Shown here: positions 19,617 to 27,251 of the stretch, piece by piece
Position numbering within the stretch: position 1 is the first letter of the stretch
Layout of the letters: each line of letters starts with the position of its first letter
IMG/VR virus record: IMGVR_UViG_3300027708_000024
Direction: 5' to 3' (one strand)
From: a virus
DNA: 64,000 bases
The notes under the pieces: generated by a model
The model's input: only the letters and a program-made list of their open reading frames with translations
Told to the model about the DNA's origin: nothing
Databases searched by the model: none
Program-made: the position numbers and the translations under genes

Positions 19617-20419
19617 AAATTGCTGTTTGTAGTGATCTGCATTTGGAATTTGGTACTGTCAATCTCGAAAATACAGAGAATGCGGATGTCCTGATTCTTG
19701 GTGGTGATATTTGTGTTGCCGCAGATTTGAATATGAAAGATGAATATGCAATTGACTCAAGTTCTAATCGCTCTGAAAGACTTCATGAATTCTTTGATAG
19801 ATGTTGTGGAAGATTTTCCCACGTTATTTACACCACCGGAAATCATGAACACTATCACGGTAATTTTAGCAATACTTATCGAGTTCTCCTTGATAGGCTT
19901 GGCTATCTACGGAATCTACATATCCTAGATAAGGAAACATTTGTATTGGATGATATTACATTCATTGTTGGTACATTATGGACTGATATGAATAAAGAAG
20001 ATCCTATCACCCTAATGCAAATGCCAAAAGTGATGAATGATTTTCGTTATGTAAAAAATGGTGAAGTAACATTTACACCAAGAGATGCCGTTGCTGACCA
20101 TAAAAAAATGCTAGACTGCATCAAGACTACAATCGAAGGTCGAGTTGATGAGAAATTTGTTGTAGTTGGTCATCATGCACCAAGTAGAATGTCTACGCAT
20201 TCTGTGTATGCAAAAGAAGTAATTATGAATGGTGGTTATAGTTCTGATTTGAATGATTTGATCTTATCTAATCCACAAATAAAATTATGGACTCATGGCC
20301 ATACTCACCATGAATTTGATTACATGATTGGTGATTGTCGTGTGGTATGTAATCCTCGTGGTTACAAGAATTATGAAGATCGTGCTGATAATTTTGAATT
20401 GAAATTTGTAGAGGTTTGA
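19613..20419 (+). CDS. Calcineurin-like metallophosphoesterase
   Basis: SDLH, GDI, GNHE, HGHTH, NPRGY. Confidence 0.9.
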   Translation: MKIAVCSDLHLEFGTVNLENTENADVLILGGDICVAADLNMKDEYAIDSSSNRSERLHEFFDRCCGRFSHVIYTTGNHEHYHGNFSNTYRVLLDRLGYLRNLHILDKETFVLDDITFIVGTLWTDMNKEDPITLMQMPKVMNDFRYVKNGEVTFTPRDAVADHKKMLDCIKTTIEGRVDEKFVVVGHHAPSRMSTHSVYAKEVIMNGGYSSDLNDLILSNPQIKLWTHGHTHHEFDYMIGDCRVVCNPRGYKNYEDRADNFELKFVEV

Positions 20420-20420
20420 T

Positions 20421-20699
20421 ATGGAAAAAAAATTATACTTAGTTGAAACCGTTTCAATGTTTCGTATGCGATATGTTGTTGAAGCAAAAGAAGCAGAACA
20501 TGCTACTGATGAAGTAGTAATGCGTACCGATCAAATAACAGAATTCTCACAACATCATGTTGATGAGAACATTCTCTCGGTTCGTGAATTGAGTAGATTG
20601 GATTATCTTGATCTATTTGATAAAGACAATGACTATTTGTCATCATGGGATGAAGAAGCAAAAATGAATTTTATTAATAAGATTGATTATGATAACTGA
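20421..20699 (+). CDS. Hypothetical protein
   Basis: ORF with GAGG SD. Confidence 0.65.
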   Translation: MEKKLYLVETVSMFRMRYVVEAKEAEHATDEVVMRTDQITEFSQHHVDENILSVRELSRLDYLDLFDKDNDYLSSWDEEAKMNFINKIDYDN

Positions 20700-20970
20700 T
20701 AAAAATGAAGAAGCATTAAGAATTCTTCAAGAAGAATGCGCTGAAGTGATTCAAGCAATTAGTAAAATATTTAGGTTTGGTGCAGACATGAGTTACCCAA
20801 CAAATGATTCACCAACCAATAGAAATAAACTTGAAGAAGAAATTGGTGATTTGCTTGCAATGGTAGAAATTCTAGTTGCAGCAAAATACTTAGATGAAAC
20901 TCATCTTAGCGAAGCATCAAAAAATAAAAAATTGAAACTATTAAAATGGTCATCCATTTATGAAAACTAA
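20683..20970 (+). CDS. MazG-like NTP pyrophosphohydrolase
   Basis: QEECAEV...LEEEIGDL. Confidence 0.8.
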   Translation: MIMITDKNEEALRILQEECAEVIQAISKIFRFGADMSYPTNDSPTNRNKLEEEIGDLLAMVEILVAAKYLDETHLSEASKNKKLKLLKWSSIYEN

Positions 20971-21394
20971 ATTTGTTAATGCATATATGAAAGTTGCGGA
21001 AACGTTTGCAGAACTTTCATCAGCAAGACGCCTTCATGTTGGTGCGGTTATTGTAAAAGATGACCGCATCATTTCTATTGGATATAATGGTACACCAACT
21101 GGTTGGGATAACAATTGCGAAGATGAATTTCTATCTGAAGATGGTAGTTTCATGTTGAAAACTAAACCAGAAACCCTTCATGCAGAAACCAATGCAATTG
21201 CTAAGTTAGCAAAATCTACAGAATCTGGTGATGGTGCTACTCTTTTTGTTACTCATGCACCATGTTTAGATTGTGGTAAACTTGTATATCAAAGTGGAAT
21301 TCGTACAGTATTTTATCGTAATGAATATCGTGATACTAGAGGAATTGAGTTTCTAAAAAAAGCAGGCGTTACAATAGAAAAAATAAATACTTAA
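20960..21394 (+). CDS. cd: dCMP deaminase
   Basis: GYNG, HAE.NAI, PCLDC. Confidence 0.92.
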   Translation: MKTKFVNAYMKVAETFAELSSARRLHVGAVIVKDDRIISIGYNGTPTGWDNNCEDEFLSEDGSFMLKTKPETLHAETNAIAKLAKSTESGDGATLFVTHAPCLDCGKLVYQSGIRTVFYRNEYRDTRGIEFLKKAGVTIEKINT

Positions 21395-21440
21395 CTGGAT
21401 AATGCATATTTGAAATCGGAGTGATTTTAAGGAAACCAAG

Positions 21441-21947
21441 ATGCGTATACAGGTATTTAATTGTCCTGATAAAGAGTTCAAACCTTACATTATTGATGCT
21501 GTTGAATTTTATAGTCAGTCTTTATTTTCTAATAAGATGTTAGAATCAGACTTGAATATTAAAATCAAATTTAATAGTAAATTGACTGTTTATGGTTACG
21601 CATCAATTATTGGATACAACAAATCGAAGAAAGCCAGAAAATTTTTAATCGAACTGCATCCAGGTATTGGTTCTAGAAGAATACTGGAAACATTGGCACA
21701 TGAGATGGTTCATGTAAAGCAGTTTGCATACAATGAGACTAATGAAAAATTAAGCAGATGGAAAGGCACAAAAATCAATCCTGAGCAGGTAGATTACTTT
21801 GACCATCCTTGGGAAATAGAAGCATACGGTAAAGAAGTTGGATTGTTTACCAAATATGCCATACATAATCAATTGTGGCATGTGTTTAGTGATATCAGAA
21901 ATCCAGATGATCCGATAGAAATTGGCAAGATTAATTGGAAAATGTGA
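21441..21947 (+). CDS. Zincin-like metallopeptidase domain protein
   Basis: LAHEMVHVKQ and PWEIEAY. Confidence 0.7.
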   Translation: MRIQVFNCPDKEFKPYIIDAVEFYSQSLFSNKMLESDLNIKIKFNSKLTVYGYASIIGYNKSKKARKFLIELHPGIGSRRILETLAHEMVHVKQFAYNETNEKLSRWKGTKINPEQVDYFDHPWEIEAYGKEVGLFTKYAIHNQLWHVFSDIRNPDDPIEIGKINWKM

Positions 21948-21964
21948 TAAATTTATTAACTTTT

Positions 21965-22017
21965 TGTTGTTTTTTTACAACAAAACCCTTGACTTTATAA
22001 AAAAAATACTATATAAT
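21965..22017 (+). promoter_or_regulatory. sigma70 promoter of tRNA-array leader with upstream palindrome
   Basis: TGTTGT-N6-ACAACA (21965-21982); TTGACT(21989)-17-TATAAT(22012). Confidence 0.8.
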
Positions 22018-22050
22018 AGCAGAATATTAAATTTTAACTGAAAGAAAAAA

Positions 22051-22146
22051 ATGTTGTCCTTACATAAACCCACAACCAGTCAACCAGGATATCGCACAAT
22101 TAATTGCGGCGAAGCGTCATGGTTTGCCTTCGGGGTTCGTGTATAG
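22051..22146 (+). CDS. Leader peptide MLSLHKPTTSQPGYRTINCGEASWFAFGVRV (31 aa, 30 distinct codons)
   Basis: GAAAG SD-like at 22040-22044; ORF between promoter and terminator; its end overlaps the antiterminator. Confidence 0.7.
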   Translation: MLSLHKPTTSQPGYRTINCGEASWFAFGVRV

Positions 22147-22202
22147 ATAGTAAAAGTTAAACTCTAAACACAAGACCCCTAATCAAAAGTTAGGGGTTTT
22201 TT
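22132..22202 (+). terminator. Attenuator: intrinsic terminator with overlapping antiterminator
   Basis: Terminator ACCCCTAA(22175-82)/TTAGGGGT(22190-97) plus T run; antiterminator 22132-22147 pairs with 22163-22179. Confidence 0.8.
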
Positions 22203-22214
22203 GTTTGTAGTTTT

Positions 22215-22304
22215 GGAAGTGTGCCAGAGTCCGGTTTATTGGAACAGTCTTGAAAACTGTCGTATCGAAAGGTACCGTGAGTTCGAATCTCACCGCTTCC
22301 GCCA
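22215..22304 (+). tRNA. tRNA-Ser(UGA)
   Basis: Cloverleaf, long variable arm, loop CTTGAAA, GTTCGAATC, encoded CCA. Confidence 0.93.
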
Positions 22305-22312
22305 GATTAACT

Positions 22313-22406
22313 GGAACATTGGCCGAGTTGGTCTAAGGCACTTTCCTGCTAAGAAAGCATCGGGTCAAAAACCTGATCGTTGGTTCGAATCCAACATGTT
22401 CCGCCA
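22313..22406 (+). tRNA. tRNA-Ser(GCU)
   Basis: Anticodon arm CTTTC-CTGCTAA-GAAAG, long variable arm, CCA. Confidence 0.92.
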
Positions 22407-22415
22407 AAGTTTCAT

Positions 22416-22491
22416 GTACAGGTGGTCTGAGTGGTTAGGCGGCAGGTTGCAACCCTGTCCTATGCAGGTTCGATTCCTGTCCTGTACTCCA
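22416..22491 (+). tRNA. tRNA-Cys(GCA)
   Basis: Acceptor GTACAGG/CCTGTAC, U73, loop TTGCAAC, CCA. Confidence 0.9.
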
Positions 22492-22509
22492 GTTGCAAAA
22501 ATAGTAACA

Positions 22510-22560
22510 TGTTGTATAAAAACAACAGCGCTTGACAAAACGATTAATTGGTAGTATAAT
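22510..22560 (+). promoter_or_regulatory. Consensus sigma70 promoter inside tRNA array with upstream palindrome
   Basis: TGTTGT-N6-ACAACA (22510-22527); TTGACA(22532)-17-TATAAT(22555). Confidence 0.85.
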
Positions 22561-22740
22561 TGTTTCTGTTGAGTTGATAAACAAACGGAAATAAACGATC
22601 CGTCTCCCTAGTGGAGTTTAGCAAGGGTTTGGTGTGGTAATGACTTCGGCACCATGTAACAGTCAGTTCCTTGTTAGTTTTCGATCAGATGGTAGGTAAC
22701 TACCCAATGGTTGTAGGTGACGATGGGCTTTATAGGAACC
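22561..22740 (+). ncRNA. Unidentified structured RNA with nested H-type pseudoknot
   Basis: Multiple stems, no plausible ORF; begins at the promoter start site. Confidence 0.5.
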
Positions 22741-22753
22741 TTCAAGAGTTTAT

Positions 22754-22828
22754 GCACCGTTCGTCTATCGGTTAGGACACTGCCCTTTCACGGCGGTAAG
22801 AGGAGTTCGATTCTCCTACGGTGTACCA
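22754..22828 (+). tRNA. tRNA-Glu(UUC)
   Basis: GCACCGT/ACGGTGT, loop CTTTCAC, CCA. Confidence 0.92.
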
Positions 22829-22831
22829 TAT

Positions 22832-23052
22832 TGAAACACATTACTAAGAGTCCAGGTTCAGAGCGTGGCATAGTGTGTTTCACTATGTTAGACTTGAGTT
22901 GTGGCAAGTATAGTCCACAAACAGGAGTGTAACCTGATGAATACAGAACATAAGTATTCAACGTGATGAGCCATTTTTGACCGTGGGATTTAGGCAAGAA
23001 ACACATAATAAAACGGCAGACGTAAAACACGACTACAATCGTCTAGGTAGTC
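22832..23052 (+). ncRNA. Unidentified multi-hairpin/pseudoknot RNA(s) after tRNA-Glu
   Basis: 12-bp stem 22832-43/22871-82, then several hairpins and two potential H-type pseudoknots. Confidence 0.5.
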
Positions 23053-23080
23053 AATTTTTTAACTGATAATGGAGATACAC

Positions 23081-23269
23081 ATGAGTAAAGTTTACTTGGG
23101 TCGTTTCAATCAGTATAAAGTCGGTACTAGAACTGCTACTGGCATGAAAGAAGCAAAGTTCTATCAACGTGGTTATAAATTACTTAGTGGTAAAGAATAC
23201 AAGATCAAAAAATTAAATAAGATTGTGCAAGTATGGCACGATATCGATGAAGGTTTTATTGTAGTATAA
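23081..23269 (+). CDS. Small basic hypothetical protein within tRNA array
   Basis: GGAG SD, ATG 23081. Confidence 0.6.
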   Translation: MSKVYLGRFNQYKVGTRTATGMKEAKFYQRGYKLLSGKEYKIKKLNKIVQVWHDIDEGFIVV

Positions 23270-23276
23270 AGTCTAT

Positions 23277-23352
23277 TGCCTTGTAGCTCAGTCGGTAGAG
23301 CAGGTGACTGTTAATCACCCTGTCGTTGGTTCGATCCCAACCTCTGGAGCCA
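23277..23352 (+). tRNA. tRNA-Asn(GUU) with mismatched acceptor stem (possible pseudo-tRNA)
   Basis: Normal D, anticodon and T arms and GCCA end, but acceptor TGCCTTG/CTCTGGA has 4 mismatches. Confidence 0.7.
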
Positions 23353-23391
23353 CTTTTAAGTTTACAGTGTACTAGTTTTAAGTTTACAATT

Positions 23392-23466
23392 CTCGGTGTG
23401 GTGTAATTGGCAGCACCACGGTCTCCAAAACCGTTAGTTGCGGTTCAAATCCGTACACCGAGGCCA
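23392..23466 (+). tRNA. tRNA-Trp(CCA)
   Basis: CTCGGTG/CACCGAG, loop CTCCAAA, CCA. Confidence 0.92.
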
Positions 23467-23474
23467 AGTTTATT

Positions 23475-23548
23475 GCGGGATTAGTTTAATGGTAAAACTA
23501 GAGATTTCCAATCTTTCGTCATCAGTTCGATTCTGATATCCCGCTCCA
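23475..23548 (+). tRNA. tRNA-Gly(UCC)
   Basis: GCGGGAT/ATCCCGC, U73, loop TTTCCAA. Confidence 0.92.
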
Positions 23549-23565
23549 TCAATTTAAGGAATGTT

Positions 23566-23805
23566 ATGCGACCATTGAATGATAATATTATAGTTGAACG
23601 AATTGAAAAAGAGAATGTTACTAGTTCTGGTATTCTTTTGAAATCTAGTGATGAAGCAGACAAAGCAAAAGTTACTGCTATTGGATCTGATGTTGTTGAT
23701 GTCAATATTGATGATATTCTATTGATCAATTGGAACAAAGCAAGAAAAATCTCTGACAACATCTATCAAGTAAACATTGAAGATGTTATTGGTGTATTTG
23801 AATAG
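23566..23805 (+). CDS. groES: Co-chaperonin GroES-like
   Basis: MRPLND.IIV, T.SGILL, V.AIG, DVIGV. Confidence 0.88.
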   Translation: MRPLNDNIIVERIEKENVTSSGILLKSSDEADKAKVTAIGSDVVDVNIDDILLINWNKARKISDNIYQVNIEDVIGVFE

Positions 23806-23826
23806 ATACTGTAAGGTCTAGTAAAT

Positions 23827-23901
23827 CTGCCCGTAGTTAAATGGATATAACACTAGCCTTCTAAGCTTGCGTTCCAGGTTCGATTCCTGGCGGGCGGACC
23901 A
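23827..23901 (+). tRNA. tRNA-Arg(UCU)
   Basis: CTGCCCG/CGGGCGG, loop CTTCTAA, CCA. Confidence 0.9.
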
Positions 23902-23943
23902 AATATTAAAGTGCATAAATATATACTTTAAAGGACAGTCATA

Positions 23944-24249
23944 ATGAACTACTTAAAAGCAGTATTTTTGGCTGTACTATGCACATTCTATGCAGTATCC
24001 TACGCCGCAGCACCTATTCCTTTCGATTTTGAAAAACCAGTAAAGTGCGCCAAGACGGTGGAATTACTTGAGTATTTTGAAAGTGAATATGGTGAAACAG
24101 TAAAGTGGTTAGCAAAAGATGGATCGTCAGATTCATATTTCGCAGTTTTGATGAATGATAACAAACTCACATGGACTATCATGCAGTTTGACACCGAAGT
24201 TGCTTGTGTACTAGGTACTGGAAAACAAGTAAAATTAACTCATCTATAA
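23944..24249 (+). CDS. Exported hypothetical protein (signal peptide)
   Basis: Hydrophobic N-terminus ending SYA; CATAAATA late-type promoter at 23914. Confidence 0.65.
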   Translation: MNYLKAVFLAVLCTFYAVSYAAAPIPFDFEKPVKCAKTVELLEYFESEYGETVKWLAKDGSSDSYFAVLMNDNKLTWTIMQFDTEVACVLGTGKQVKLTHL

Positions 24250-24255
24250 ATCAAT

Positions 24256-24330
24256 CGCAGGATAGCGCAGCGGTAGAGCACCGGACTCATAATCCGGAGG
24301 TCGAAGGTTCGATTCCTTCTCCTGCAACCA
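24256..24330 (+). tRNA. tRNA-Met(CAU), initiator-like
   Basis: C1xA72 mismatch, loop CTCATAA, CCA. Confidence 0.88.
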
Positions 24331-24352
24331 TCACATTCTCACCAAAAAATAC

Positions 24353-24381
24353 TTGCAACCTGCAATGGGTTGTGTTATAAT
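24353..24381 (+). promoter_or_regulatory. sigma70-type promoter
   Basis: TTGCAA-17-TATAAT with TG extension. Confidence 0.7.
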
Positions 24382-24411
24382 TATTGAACTTGAGATTATT
24401 TAGGAGACATC

Positions 24412-24723
24412 ATGATTTTGATATTTAAATTGACAACCGGAGAAGAAGTTCTCGGTGAAATGGTTAATGCCACATTGGGTGATTTTTATTATTCGATTAA
24501 AAATCCAGTCGCCGTTGCAGTTGTTCGTGGTAAAGATGGACAACCTAATGTAGGATTTGCTCCATTCCCAATACACTCAGAACAGAAAAAAGATTTCACT
24601 ATTGACATTCCTAGAGAGCATGTAGTATACTCATATACTCCTGCTGAAGATTTTATTAATAATTACAATCAAATCTTTGGTTCTGGTATCGTGCTTCCAT
24701 CTAAACAACTGATAACTGGTTAA
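24412..24723 (+). CDS. Conserved hypothetical (Sm-like) upstream of DNA polymerase
   Basis: FKLTTGEEVLGE; YNQIFGSGIVLP. Confidence 0.7.
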   Translation: MILIFKLTTGEEVLGEMVNATLGDFYYSIKNPVAVAVVRGKDGQPNVGFAPFPIHSEQKKDFTIDIPREHVVYSYTPAEDFINNYNQIFGSGIVLPSKQLITG

Positions 24724-27251
24724 TGTCAAACTTCTATACGAATGTTCAAACTTCAGGTAACTATATTCTATATCGTGGTATTCTTGACGGTAAACGTGTC
24801 AAACAACGTATAGAATATTTTCCTACATTATATGTGCCTTCTAAGAAGGTCACAAAATTCACTTCTCTGCAAGGTGAATATCTTGATGAAATCAAGCCTG
24901 GTGGTCTAAGAGACGCAAGAGAGTTTATTAAAAGTTACGAACACGTTGATAATTTTCGTATCTTTGGAAACACCAGACATGAGTATTCTTTCATCGCTGA
25001 TCAACACACTACCGATGTTGATTGGGATCAATCACTAATTCTAACAGCAATCATTGATATCGAGGTTGGATCAGAAAATGGATTCCCGCATCCAGAAACT
25101 GCATCTGAACCAATTACTGCAATCTGTCTCAAATACGTTGGTGGTATAACTTATGTTTTTGGTTGTGGTGATTACAAAGTACAAGGTAAAGAAATCTATG
25201 TACAATGTAGAGATGAAGCAACACTCATCAAACGGTTTATAAAAGTATGGACAGAAAACTATCCAGATATCATCAGTGGTTGGAACATTAAGTTCTTTGA
25301 CTTTCCATATATCATTAATCGGATTCGTAAAGTTCTAGGTGAAGATGATGCAAAAAAACTTTCACCATGGAACTATATTGGCACACGCAAAGCAATTCTG
25401 ATGGGTAAAGAACACACCGTTTATGATATGAATGGTGTTGCAATGTTAGACTACATCGAACTATATCGTAAATATGCTCCTGGTGGTGCATCACAAGATT
25501 CATACAAGTTGGATAATATTGCATCTGTAGAGATTGGTCAGAATAAAATTTCTTATGATGAATATGATTCATTGTATGACTTGTACAAACTAAACTATCA
25601 AAAGTTTATTGAGTACAACATCAAAGACGTTGAGTTGATTGAGAAGTTGGATGATAAACTGAAATTGTTTGAGTTGGCACTAACTCTTGCCTATGATAGT
25701 AAAACTAATTTTGATGATGTGTTTGCACAAGTTCGTATGTGGGACGTTTTGATTTACAATCACTTGCGTGAGCGTGACATTATTATTCCACCATCAGGTA
25801 ACAATCGTAAAGACGAAGCATATGAAGGTGCATATGTCAAAGACCCACAAGTTGGAATGCACAAGTGGGTAGCATCGTTTGACTTGAATAGTCTGTACCC
25901 ACATTTGATTATGCAGTACAATATAAGTCCTGAGACTTTAATTGAACCAGAAAACTACACAGACACACACAGAGACATTTTGGCACAAGGTGTTGATGTA
26001 GATGCATTGTTGAAAAACAAAGTTGATCTAAGTCAATTATCTGCATCTACCATCACACCTAATGGTCAATTCTTCAGAACAGACATTCAAGGTTTTCTTC
26101 CTGCAATGATGGAGAAGATGTATGAAGATCGAAAAGTCTACAAGAAGAAATCAATCGATGCAAAGAAAGCACTTGAGTTGGAATCAGATCCAACTAAACG
26201 ATATGAAATTGAAAAGCGTGTTGCTCGGTATAATAACTTGCAACTTGCAAAAAAAGTTTGTTTGAACTCTGCTTATGGTGCTCTTGGTAATCAATTCTTC
26301 AGATTCTTTGATGTACGACAAGCAGCAGGTATTACATTATCTGGTCAGTTATCTATCCGTTGGATTGAAAACAAGTTAAATGACTACATGAATAAACTGT
26401 TAGGTACAAATGACGATTATGTCATTGCATCTGATACCGATTCGATCTACTTGAAACTTGGTCCACTCATTGATAAATTTGTAAAAAATAAAGATGCAAA
26501 ACAAACAGTCGAAGTGATGGATAGAATTTGTGAAGAAAAGATTCAACCATTTATCGATAAGTCATATGAAGAACTAGCATCGTATGTTCATGCATCTTCT
26601 CAGAAGATGCAAATGAAACGTGAAGCACTTGCAGACAAAGGTATCTGGACTGCAAAGAAACGTTATATTCTCAATGTCTATAACAACGAAGGTGTGCAAT
26701 ATGCAACACCACAAAAGAAAGTCATGGGTCTTGAAATGGTGAAGTCATCAACACCCGCAGCAATTCGTGAGAAGATGGGTCAATCGATTGATATTATGAT
26801 GAATGGAACTGAAGATGAATTACATGAATTCATCGATAAATTCCGTGATGAGTTTAGATCGTTACCACCTGAAGAAATTTCTTTCCCACGTGGAGTAAAT
26901 GGCATAACGCAATATAGTGACAAGTCTGCATTATATAAGAAAGGCACACCAATGCATGTTAAGGGTGCAATACTATATAATCACTATCTGAAAGAAAAAG
27001 GATTAACAAAGAAGTATCCAGAAATTAATGAAGGTGAGAAAATCAAGTTCGCCTATCTAAAGCAGCCAAATCCATTTCAATCAGAAACCGTAATTGGTTT
27101 CCCTGTCAGACTTCCAAAAGAATTTGAATTGGAAGATTATATTGATTATGAAACACAATTTGAGAAAGCATTCATTGATCCAATTACTGTTGTTTTAAAC
27201 TGTATGGGTTGGAGTGCAGAACGTAAGAATTCAATATTCGATTTATTCTAA
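24723..27251 (+). CDS. gp43: DNA polymerase gp43 (family B), uninterrupted
   Basis: DIEV exonuclease, SFDLNSLYP, K..LNSAYG, SDTDS. Confidence 0.98.
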   Translation: MSNFYTNVQTSGNYILYRGILDGKRVKQRIEYFPTLYVPSKKVTKFTSLQGEYLDEIKPGGLRDAREFIKSYEHVDNFRIFGNTRHEYSFIADQHTTDVDWDQSLILTAIIDIEVGSENGFPHPETASEPITAICLKYVGGITYVFGCGDYKVQGKEIYVQCRDEATLIKRFIKVWTENYPDIISGWNIKFFDFPYIINRIRKVLGEDDAKKLSPWNYIGTRKAILMGKEHTVYDMNGVAMLDYIELYRKYAPGGASQDSYKLDNIASVEIGQNKISYDEYDSLYDLYKLNYQKFIEYNIKDVELIEKLDDKLKLFELALTLAYDSKTNFDDVFAQVRMWDVLIYNHLRERDIIIPPSGNNRKDEAYEGAYVKDPQVGMHKWVASFDLNSLYPHLIMQYNISPETLIEPENYTDTHRDILAQGVDVDALLKNKVDLSQLSASTITPNGQFFRTDIQGFLPAMMEKMYEDRKVYKKKSIDAKKALELESDPTKRYEIEKRVARYNNLQLAKKVCLNSAYGALGNQFFRFFDVRQAAGITLSGQLSIRWIENKLNDYMNKLLGTNDDYVIASDTDSIYLKLGPLIDKFVKNKDAKQTVEVMDRICEEKIQPFIDKSYEELASYVHASSQKMQMKREALADKGIWTAKKRYILNVYNNEGVQYATPQKKVMGLEMVKSSTPAAIREKMGQSIDIMMNGTEDELHEFIDKFRDEFRSLPPEEISFPRGVNGITQYSDKSALYKKGTPMHVKGAILYNHYLKEKGLTKKYPEINEGEKIKFAYLKQPNPFQSETVIGFPVRLPKEFELEDYIDYETQFEKAFIDPITVVLNCMGWSAERKNSIFDLF

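Follow-up and report, generated by a model that had tools for sequence, protein, structure and literature searches.

What controls the transcription of the tRNA array in a T4-like phage? The question is raised by a locus in IMG/VR virus record IMGVR_UViG_3300027708_000024, of which a stretch of 64,000 nucleotides (nt), called the window below, was analysed. At this locus a promoter, a short open reading frame (ORF) and an intrinsic terminator precede the first tRNA gene of the array. A preliminary description, made from the letters of the window, had read the ORF as a leader peptide that samples almost every codon and the terminator as part of an attenuator that gates the array. Comparison with relatives favours a reading close to this one, to which we give a probability of about 0.55: the locus would be a translation-sensing (leader-peptide) transcription attenuator at the head of the phage tRNA array, with a leader of flat, all-amino-acid composition. 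The evidence for it includes the composition of the leader and the co-evolution of the end of the ORF with the flank of the terminator.

The elements of the locus, all on the plus strand, are as follows.

21962..21985, +: stem-loop of 9 bp immediately 5' of promoter P1, folding at -7.9 kcal/mol
21989..22017, +: promoter P1, sigma-70-type (TTGACT 21989-21994, 17 nt, TATAAT 22012-22017; 11 of 12 matches)
22040..22044, +: weak Shine-Dalgarno-like sequence GAAAG within an A-rich leader, read from the sequence
22051..22146, +: leader ORF of 31 codons plus TAG, with 30 distinct codons, 19 amino-acid types and 20 of the 24 decoding groups defined below
22062..22071, +: region 1, codons His-Lys-Pro; 5' strand of the leader hairpin, pairing with region 2 in minimum free energy (MFE) folds (anti-antiterminator)
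22090..22112, +: apical hairpin of the leader (TATCGC.. / ..GCG) in predicted folds, a possible pause hairpin
22132..22147, +: region 2, the last four codons and the stop; strand common to the leader hairpin and the antiterminator
22163..22179, +: region 3, an A-rich flank and the first four C of the terminator stem; its alternative partners are region 2, or region 4 and the U-tract
22172..22206, +: intrinsic terminator, with stem 22175-22182 paired to 22190-22197, a 7-nt loop, then U6GUUU
22215..22491, +: tRNA-Ser(UGA), tRNA-Ser(GCU) and tRNA-Cys(GCA), intact (45.7-56.3 bits), the sole genes between the terminator and P2
22510..22560, +: second stem-loop/promoter cassette, P2 (TTGACA, 17 nt, TATAAT; promoter 22532-22560, 12 of 12 matches)

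On recheck, every sequence statement of the preliminary description about the promoter, the ORF, the terminator, tRNA-Ser and the second promoter was confirmed. Both hexamers of P1 are kept in a 19-sequence alignment, and its transcript is inferred to start near 22024. The first tRNA gene, tRNA-Ser(UGA), starts at 22215. There is no promoter-like site on the plus strand between 22017 and 22532, hence none between the terminator and the intact tRNA-Ser, tRNA-Ser and tRNA-Cys genes, and these three therefore require read-through. P2 drives the remainder of the array independently of the terminator. The earlier caveat that only Ser/Ser/Cys depend strictly on the switch in the window thus stands.

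The leader reading frame in relatives

How widespread is this arrangement? Relatives were sought among the T4-like phage contigs of IMG/VR, and labels such as L001 and L002 denote the stretches collected. Upstream of the tRNA array in the window lie a dCMP deaminase gene and then a metalloprotease-like gene encoding 168 amino acids (21441-21947). The latter has more than 560 relatives in IMG/VR, most of them with a tRNA array downstream. BLASTN and alignment place a unit of promoter, ORF and terminator, with 67-77% nucleotide identity, just 5' of the first tRNA. A further 87 loci were fetched by a pattern taken from the terminator and its flank alone; among the 54 unique instances in this terminator-motif-only sample, the ORF was evident at once in 50 and on closer reading in three more, and the last instance ends at a contig edge. 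An nhmmer profile detected the unit in 131 of the 166 loci collected by then, and in the first 80 loci it gave 45 hits and 42 full-length copies. In these contigs the unit occurs in at least 67 distinct versions. In all 46 cases with enough flank a tRNA begins 0-94 nt past the terminator, and this first tRNA is Gln, Ser, Trp or Glu. When a 14-mer from the ORF core served as the query, 103 of 104 new loci were chance matches, and no terminator-independent sample was obtained.

The leaders of this family are unusually diverse in amino acids. All 20 are present in 40 of the 67 leaders and 19 in a further 17 (length 30-42 residues), including lineages that are only about 30-40% identical. For 31-residue segments of phage proteins, the probability of at least 19 types is 0.005 and that of 20 types is 6e-5 (null about 6e-5 to 3e-4). 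Small ORFs with 20 types number 29 among the 4,618 distinct ones in all loci, and 25 of these 29 belong to the leader family. The composition is flat: no residue exceeds 10.6%, the rare residues Cys and Trp reach 5.1% and 3.2%, and there is no enrichment of a single amino acid. When 24 decoding groups are distinguished (the 20 amino acids, the second Leu, Ser and Arg boxes, and AUA), at least 22 are covered by 48 of the 67 leaders (null P = 5e-4 at 31 codons). Identical synonymous-codon pairs are also scarce, with 390 in the family against 588 expected and 1 of 15 in the window copy against 5.4 expected.

Does this diversity follow from base composition or from common ancestry? Stop-free dinucleotide shuffles of each leader yield 15.4-17.4 types, and the observed values have P = 0.0007-0.03 in 16 lineages. 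Because the leaders exceed their own shuffles, base composition is not the cause. As a control for ancestry, residues identical to the consensus were kept and the remainder was redrawn from the proteome. This gave P = 0.004-0.02 in eleven divergent lineages, and all tested lineages with differing residues lay at or above the null mean. His, Cys, Trp, Gln and Pro occupy different positions in different clades. Residues beyond the consensus are thus still diverse, and common ancestry is not the whole cause.

The copy in the window contributes less. Its leader has no Asp, which was lost by one base change; its 94% identical relative L132 has all 20 amino acids. The 30 distinct codons out of 31 are never reached in 16,274 31-codon segments of the phage's own long ORFs (P(>=28) = 0.0009), and codon adaptation is 0.51 against 0.71 (P = 0.02). 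Against its own stop-free dinucleotide shuffles, P is 0.02 for the 19 types and 0.004 for the distinct codons. This leader is the most diverse of the 151 small ORFs with an ATG start in the window, where about 0.75 such ORFs would be expected. The window copy alone is therefore marginal after multiple testing, and the weight of the composition case comes from the relatives.

The preliminary description had called the leader a codon test strip. The diversity that the name implies is real: it is significant against genome codon usage and against shuffles, with the reservation just made for the single copy, and in the relatives much of the peptide encoded by the short ORF before the array has diverged, yet its amino acids and codons remain extremely diverse. 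The stress on codons has to be relaxed, since the signal is clearer for amino acids and tRNA decoding groups than for codons. GGG makes up 3% of the phage's Gly codons and is near-invariant in the leaders, where it lies opposite CCC. Several rare GC-rich codons sit in RNA helices, and structure, not only sensing, may fix them.

Is the leader translated? The evidence is that of sequence comparison, from which the ORF is evidently translated. Each of the 67 unique homologs keeps a start codon (43 ATG, 21 GTG, 3 TTG) and an open frame, while only 7-33% of composition-matched shuffles are free of stops. The start codon is found in three contexts: in two of them ATG or GTG is preceded by a weak ribosome site, and in the third a leaderless ATG follows the -10 hexamer by 6 nt; the ribosome sites of the relatives read AGAAAG or AGGAAG before ATG or GTG. 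In 39 of the 45 sequences aligned, the distance from region 1 to region 2 is restricted to 77, 80, 83, 86 or 89 nt. The other six form two clades with offset boundary columns, and their frames run open from the start codon through to the stop. Unlike these 3-step indels within the ORF, the non-coding spacer and the terminator loop vary through lengths of every residue class. Codon-position entropy is 0.73, 0.64 and 0.85, the third position being slightly more variable, and synonymous changes make up 33% of the codon differences of a single base, against a neutral expectation of about 24%, which points to weak purifying selection on the peptide.

The leaderless context is found in L023 (4060-4100), L014, L020, L078, L041, L037 and others, which fall in two clades. 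The leader ATG stands 6-7 nt after the -10 hexamer in these loci, so that leaderless mRNA is implied for the two clades. Both are without the ~27-nt ribosome-site segment of the other clades.

Pairing between the leader and the terminator

How could the progress of a ribosome on this ORF reach the terminator? The leader hairpin, the antiterminator and the terminator share strands, which gives the classical 1:2, 2:3 and 3:4 layout. In the terminator, 94.9% of cells are paired, 65 cells have both sides changed, and 0 of 500 shuffles reach the observed value, so that covariation of this stem is confirmed in the relatives. The region 2:3 helix has 87.3% of cells paired and three pairs with changes on both sides. 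Because the clades use shifted registers, the energies of cognate and non-cognate duplexes were compared. Cognate pairs average -17.1 and non-cognate pairs -14.9 kcal/mol (permutation P<2e-5; each half alone 2e-5), and two control segment pairs are flat in the same test (0.99 and 0.36). Compensatory changes can be followed from L048 to L015 (G-C to G-U to A-U) and are also seen in L042, L047, L065 and L003. The antiterminator between the ORF end and the terminator flank, proposed earlier from the window alone, is therefore borne out by co-evolution. In the window itself, the region 2:3 duplex comprises 14 pairs with two small internal loops at -17.3 kcal/mol, and this antiterminator is comparatively weak. 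In L015 (4588-4769) and L023 (4089-4280) the antiterminator is a perfect helix of 11 bp.

The fold of the leader without a ribosome differs from what had been supposed. According to MFE predictions, the untranslated ORF RNA forms one long hairpin in 18 of 20 homologs, and region 1:2 at its base sequesters the antiterminator strand. An apical hairpin is predicted in nearly all homologs despite insertions of 3, 6 and 9 nt that lengthen the hairpin, its register varying by clade. Structure z-scores are -4.6 for 22024-22214 and down to -4.1 for the ORFs. The preliminary description had held that absence of translation frees the antiterminator strand; this part is not supported, as the 18 predicted hairpins hold the ORF end. 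With the ORF end sequestered in a conserved leader hairpin, the untranslated RNA probably terminates, as in trp.

Two other identities of this RNA were considered. A decayed tRNA-Gln in the ORF region was rejected because relatives carry both the leader and a tRNA-Gln and because the fold is a long hairpin and not a cloverleaf. A search of Rfam over 20000-27000 (E<=1) returned only tRNAs, weak matches of plastid models over the tRNA genes, and one sub-threshold NsiR1-like match at the terminator, which scored 21.7 bits where the cut-off is 39; apart from tRNAs, no T-box or other curated family was matched in this interval.

Proposed mechanism and rival explanations

Sequence and comparison bear directly on the first step of the proposed mechanism (P1 and the leader) and on the anatomy of the RNA, whereas the later steps are put forward as a model. 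P1 would fire and RNA polymerase would copy the leader, on which a ribosome would initiate at 22051. With fast decoding, the ribosome would be on or past region 2 when region 3 emerges; the region 3:4 terminator would form, and transcription would end near 22202-22206. A ribosome held at any of the ~25 upstream codons would open the leader hairpin and leave region 2 free. Such a hold could come from a missing, uncharged or cleaved tRNA, or from generally slow elongation. The free region 2 would pair with region 3, no terminator would form, and the polymerase would enter the tRNA-Ser/Ser/Cys genes or, in relatives, the whole array. Without a ribosome, region 1 would hold region 2 and transcription would terminate. 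The net effect would be homeostatic, with slow decoding leading to more phage tRNA.

A more far-reaching version is offered tentatively, at somewhat less than even odds: a single test-strip leader, with about one codon per amino acid and most decoding groups, would autoregulate a near-complete tRNA set, and any decoding delay would open the terminator and raise tRNA synthesis. As a speculation, the sensor could also answer host defences that cleave tRNA.

How does such an attenuator compare with known ones? In Escherichia coli and Salmonella, the trpL, hisL, leuL, thrL and pheL leaders contain runs of the sensed amino acid and control its biosynthesis. The phage locus shares with these operons the promoter, the short leader ORF, the 1:2/2:3/3:4 RNA, the intrinsic terminator and an ORF end that lies in segment 2. 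It differs in its flat leader (19-20 types in 30-42 residues) and in having tRNA genes as targets. Judged from its sequence, it would thus resemble trp/his-class attenuators in structure but not in the enrichment of one amino acid. The ilvGMEDA (Ile/Leu/Val) and thr (Thr/Ile) attenuators each use one leader to sense two or three related amino acids and have enzymes as targets. The multi-amino-acid leader is a likeness, while the range of nearly all twenty and the tRNA targets set the phage leader apart. The pheM leader of pheST senses Phe only, and T-box RNA binds one uncharged tRNA directly without translation; in pheST and the synthetase T-boxes, as in the proposal, a gene of the decoding machinery responds to how much charged tRNA is available. 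The leaders of ermC, cat and ABC-F type genes are generic ribosome-stalling sensors, which the phage leader would resemble. There, a ribosome stalled in a short ORF remodels a terminator or a sequestering hairpin, and the stall is drug- and peptide-specific; no all-amino-acid composition is known among such resistance-gene leaders. In the literature searched, which left most subscription journals outside its coverage, no leader-peptide control of tRNA genes and no all-amino-acid leader is described.

If the test-strip version is true, the locus would be the first leader-peptide attenuator known for tRNA genes and the first selected for even all-amino-acid composition. Attenuation would then cover the whole decoding set instead of one amino acid, and tRNA genes as well as enzyme genes. 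The reading implies that the phage itself measures decoding speed and answers by making tRNA, and a cis-acting sensor would make testable why phages carry, time and dose tRNA arrays. Selection on the composition of a peptide rather than on its sequence would be unusual, and it is measurable. A 180-nt natural reporter of global elongation, or of hunger for any codon, would be of use in synthetic biology and in assays of tRNA-targeting defence.

What speaks against an attenuator of this kind? Several observations do, beginning with the Shine-Dalgarno sequence GAAAG, a weak site when set against the GGAG/AGGA that precedes the long phage genes. The peptide is conserved in its core, Tyr-Arg ... 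Ser-Trp ... Gly; given this core and the only mild synonymous excess, a function of the peptide or effects of the nascent chain are possible. The region 1:2 helix is paired in 79% of cells and reaches P = 0.02 in the energy comparison, with no covariation above shuffles. Stall maps, computed by equilibrium folding with a 30-nt ribosome footprint, favour the terminator at nearly all stall positions; the antiterminator appears only in some relatives (L010, L008, L069 and L004), for a stall within about the first dozen codons, and never for the window copy. If the switch is real, its decision must therefore be made kinetically, and the copy in the window may be a weak one; the equilibrium maps are taken as uninformative on a kinetic switch and not as support. 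The array of the window is down to nine tRNAs and its leader still samples 19 amino acids, so that leader and array do not match.

The terminator and the layout of the arrays add to these difficulties. The U-tract is a further pairing partner for the A-rich flank of region 3. Furthermore, the sole exact match to the terminator-plus-flank motif in 185,579 bacterial genomes, in Haliea sp. E1-2-M8 (NZ_JAUTDR010000001.1; L271 5451-6080), serves as trailer and terminator for a bacterial tRNA-Val gene, as an ordinary tRNA-operon terminator. Part of the invariance of region 3 thus needs no switch. In the layout of most relatives (the majority layout), tRNA-Gln is separated from the terminator by a stem-loop and a near-consensus promoter; the tRNAs of these loci need no switch, and because the promoter follows the terminator, a switch there can only add to constitutive transcription. 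About half of the related loci have no copy of the unit. L001, whose upstream gene is 99% identical, is without window positions 21975-22515, which hold P1, the leader, the terminator and tRNA-Ser/Ser/Cys. The element is therefore dispensable. Gating of the array, as claimed at the outset, would apply to Ser/Ser/Cys alone in the window and not to most relatives, which have their own promoter after the terminator, and for L001, which lacks the cassette.

These layouts raise the question of whether the unit is an autonomous small-gene cassette. P1, the micro-ORF and the terminator would then form an independent early unit, a PeSL-flanked ORFan of a hyperplastic region, whose protein of 31-42 amino acids or terminated RNA of ~180 nt acts in trans, with the tRNAs transcribed from their own promoters or by leakage. 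PeSLs of T4-like phages consist of a stem-loop, a sigma-70-like early promoter, a ribosome site and a start codon, lie at indel boundaries, and are described as recombination and expression cassettes for ORFans (PMC2839356, PMC4122927). The P1 unit (21962-22053) agrees with this definition in its stem-loop, early-type promoter, ribosome site and start codon, and the segment missing from L001 places it at an indel boundary; P2 (22510-22560) has the stem-loop and promoter with no ORF after them. P1 and P2 share a TGTTGT..ACAACA stem-loop on their 5' side and are the only two of the window's 10 strong promoters to have it. The cassette is bounded by such repeated stem-loop/promoter elements, and the difference from L001 looks like a PeSL-type cassette indel (PMC4122927). 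The downstream promoters of the majority layout and the conserved peptide core also fit a cassette, as do Sinorhizobium rnTrpL and peTrpL, a terminated attenuator RNA and a leader peptide that are reported to act in trans (PMC6614838, PMC7298713). Even so, an autonomous cassette is unlikely. It leaves unexplained why a co-evolving helix competes with the terminator stem, why the unit stands strictly before tRNA arrays in every instance, and why the flat composition is kept through divergence. Nor does it account for the window and at least four other clades, where the terminator abuts an intact tRNA with no promoter in between; no alternative terminator pairing and no link to tRNA is described for PeSLs. 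Purifying selection on the peptide is weak, the leader peptide has no PHROG family, and the exact peptides are absent from the protein collection searched. The conserved residues (Tyr and Trp are invariant across the family, Gly nearly so) coincide with RNA helices, namely regions 1 and 2 and the middle and apical stems, and may for this reason be fixed by RNA structure and not by the peptide. A conserved functional protein was accordingly demoted to a rival.

Could the attenuator be real and respond to a different input? Coupling of ribosome and polymerase, a stall induced by the nascent peptide or a ligand (as in TnaC, ErmCL or pyrBI), or translation shut-off would all use the same RNA anatomy, and the all-amino-acid make-up would be secondary. 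The invariant Tyr and Trp and near-invariant Gly would suit such an input, as would the stall maps, in which the antiterminator is favoured for the first dozen codons only and the residues could thus not all be sensed equally. We regard this explanation as slightly less likely than the cassette. The structural constraint just mentioned may fix the same residues, the interval between Trp and the stop codon ranges from 7 to 14 or more residues, and the diversity beyond the conserved positions is left unexplained. An untranslated structured 5' leader or small RNA, with a frame open by chance and codon diversity as a by-product of GC-balanced structure, is highly improbable. The region is clearly structured, as its z-scores indicate, nucleotide conservation extends to third codon positions, the Shine-Dalgarno site is weak, and chance ORFs over tRNA genes also attain 19-20 types. 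However, all 67 variants are open at a far higher rate than composition-matched shuffles, the 3-step indels are confined to the ORF, start codons are kept in three contexts, and the diversity is above that of composition-matched shuffles. The leader-peptide attenuator with a flat leader thus remains the favoured reading.

The genomic setting and further observations

The window is part of the genome of a T4-like myovirus, with genes for a major head protein, a scaffold, a gp43-type polymerase, a gp41-type helicase, a clamp loader and a gp46-like nuclease. No close cultured relative was found, and DNA comparison with cultured phages gave no match. The nearest cultured phages, whose hosts are Caulobacter, Sinorhizobium, Methylophilales and cyanobacteria, share only about 30-36% identity in the neighbouring gene. 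In the Haliea genome, the terminator motif occurs as four repeats with a spacing of 171 nt, each with the last ~18 nt of a tRNA, like tyrT repeats, and versions with one mismatch are present in 7 of 151 genomes of Haliea's family. A bacterial tRNA-operon terminator may be the origin of the phage module, or what the module imitates, and the match is a possible hint at the host.

The relatives show further variation around the unit. Two loci missed by nhmmer, L060 and L070, have ORFs of 25 and 31 amino acids with 17 and 18 types, 5' of tRNA-Trp and tRNA-Gln, respectively. These short ORFs have endings like those of the window clade and are probably more distant family members. Loci without the leader unit (L011, L022, L036, L046 and L056) often have a Lys-rich ORF of 53-58 amino acids 5' of the first tRNA, and in L011, L046 and L056 this ORF stops 1-5 nt before that tRNA.

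In L001 (4400-4881, compared with window 21850-22900), positions of about 22590-22745 are also missing, and the stem-loop leads directly to a P2-type promoter and tRNA-Glu. The window has ~185 nt without an ORF between P2 and tRNA-Glu (22561-22745), which are missing in the near-identical L001, where tRNA-Glu begins ~25 nt after the P2-type promoter.

The array of the window comprises eight tRNAs found by ARAGORN and one Asn-like tRNA detected by Rfam only. L002, L005, L008, L014, L017 and others carry a tRNA of ~90 nt, absent from the window, which ARAGORN assigns as Ile(UAU), the anticodon being unusually placed (31-34); it is the third or fourth of the array and sits between tRNA-Ser(GCU) and tRNA-Cys. 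The Asn-like tRNA of the window (23283-23342) scores 48 bits in Rfam over model positions 7-64 only and is not called by ARAGORN. By eye, its acceptor stem is unpaired, and it may be a decayed or an unusual tRNA.

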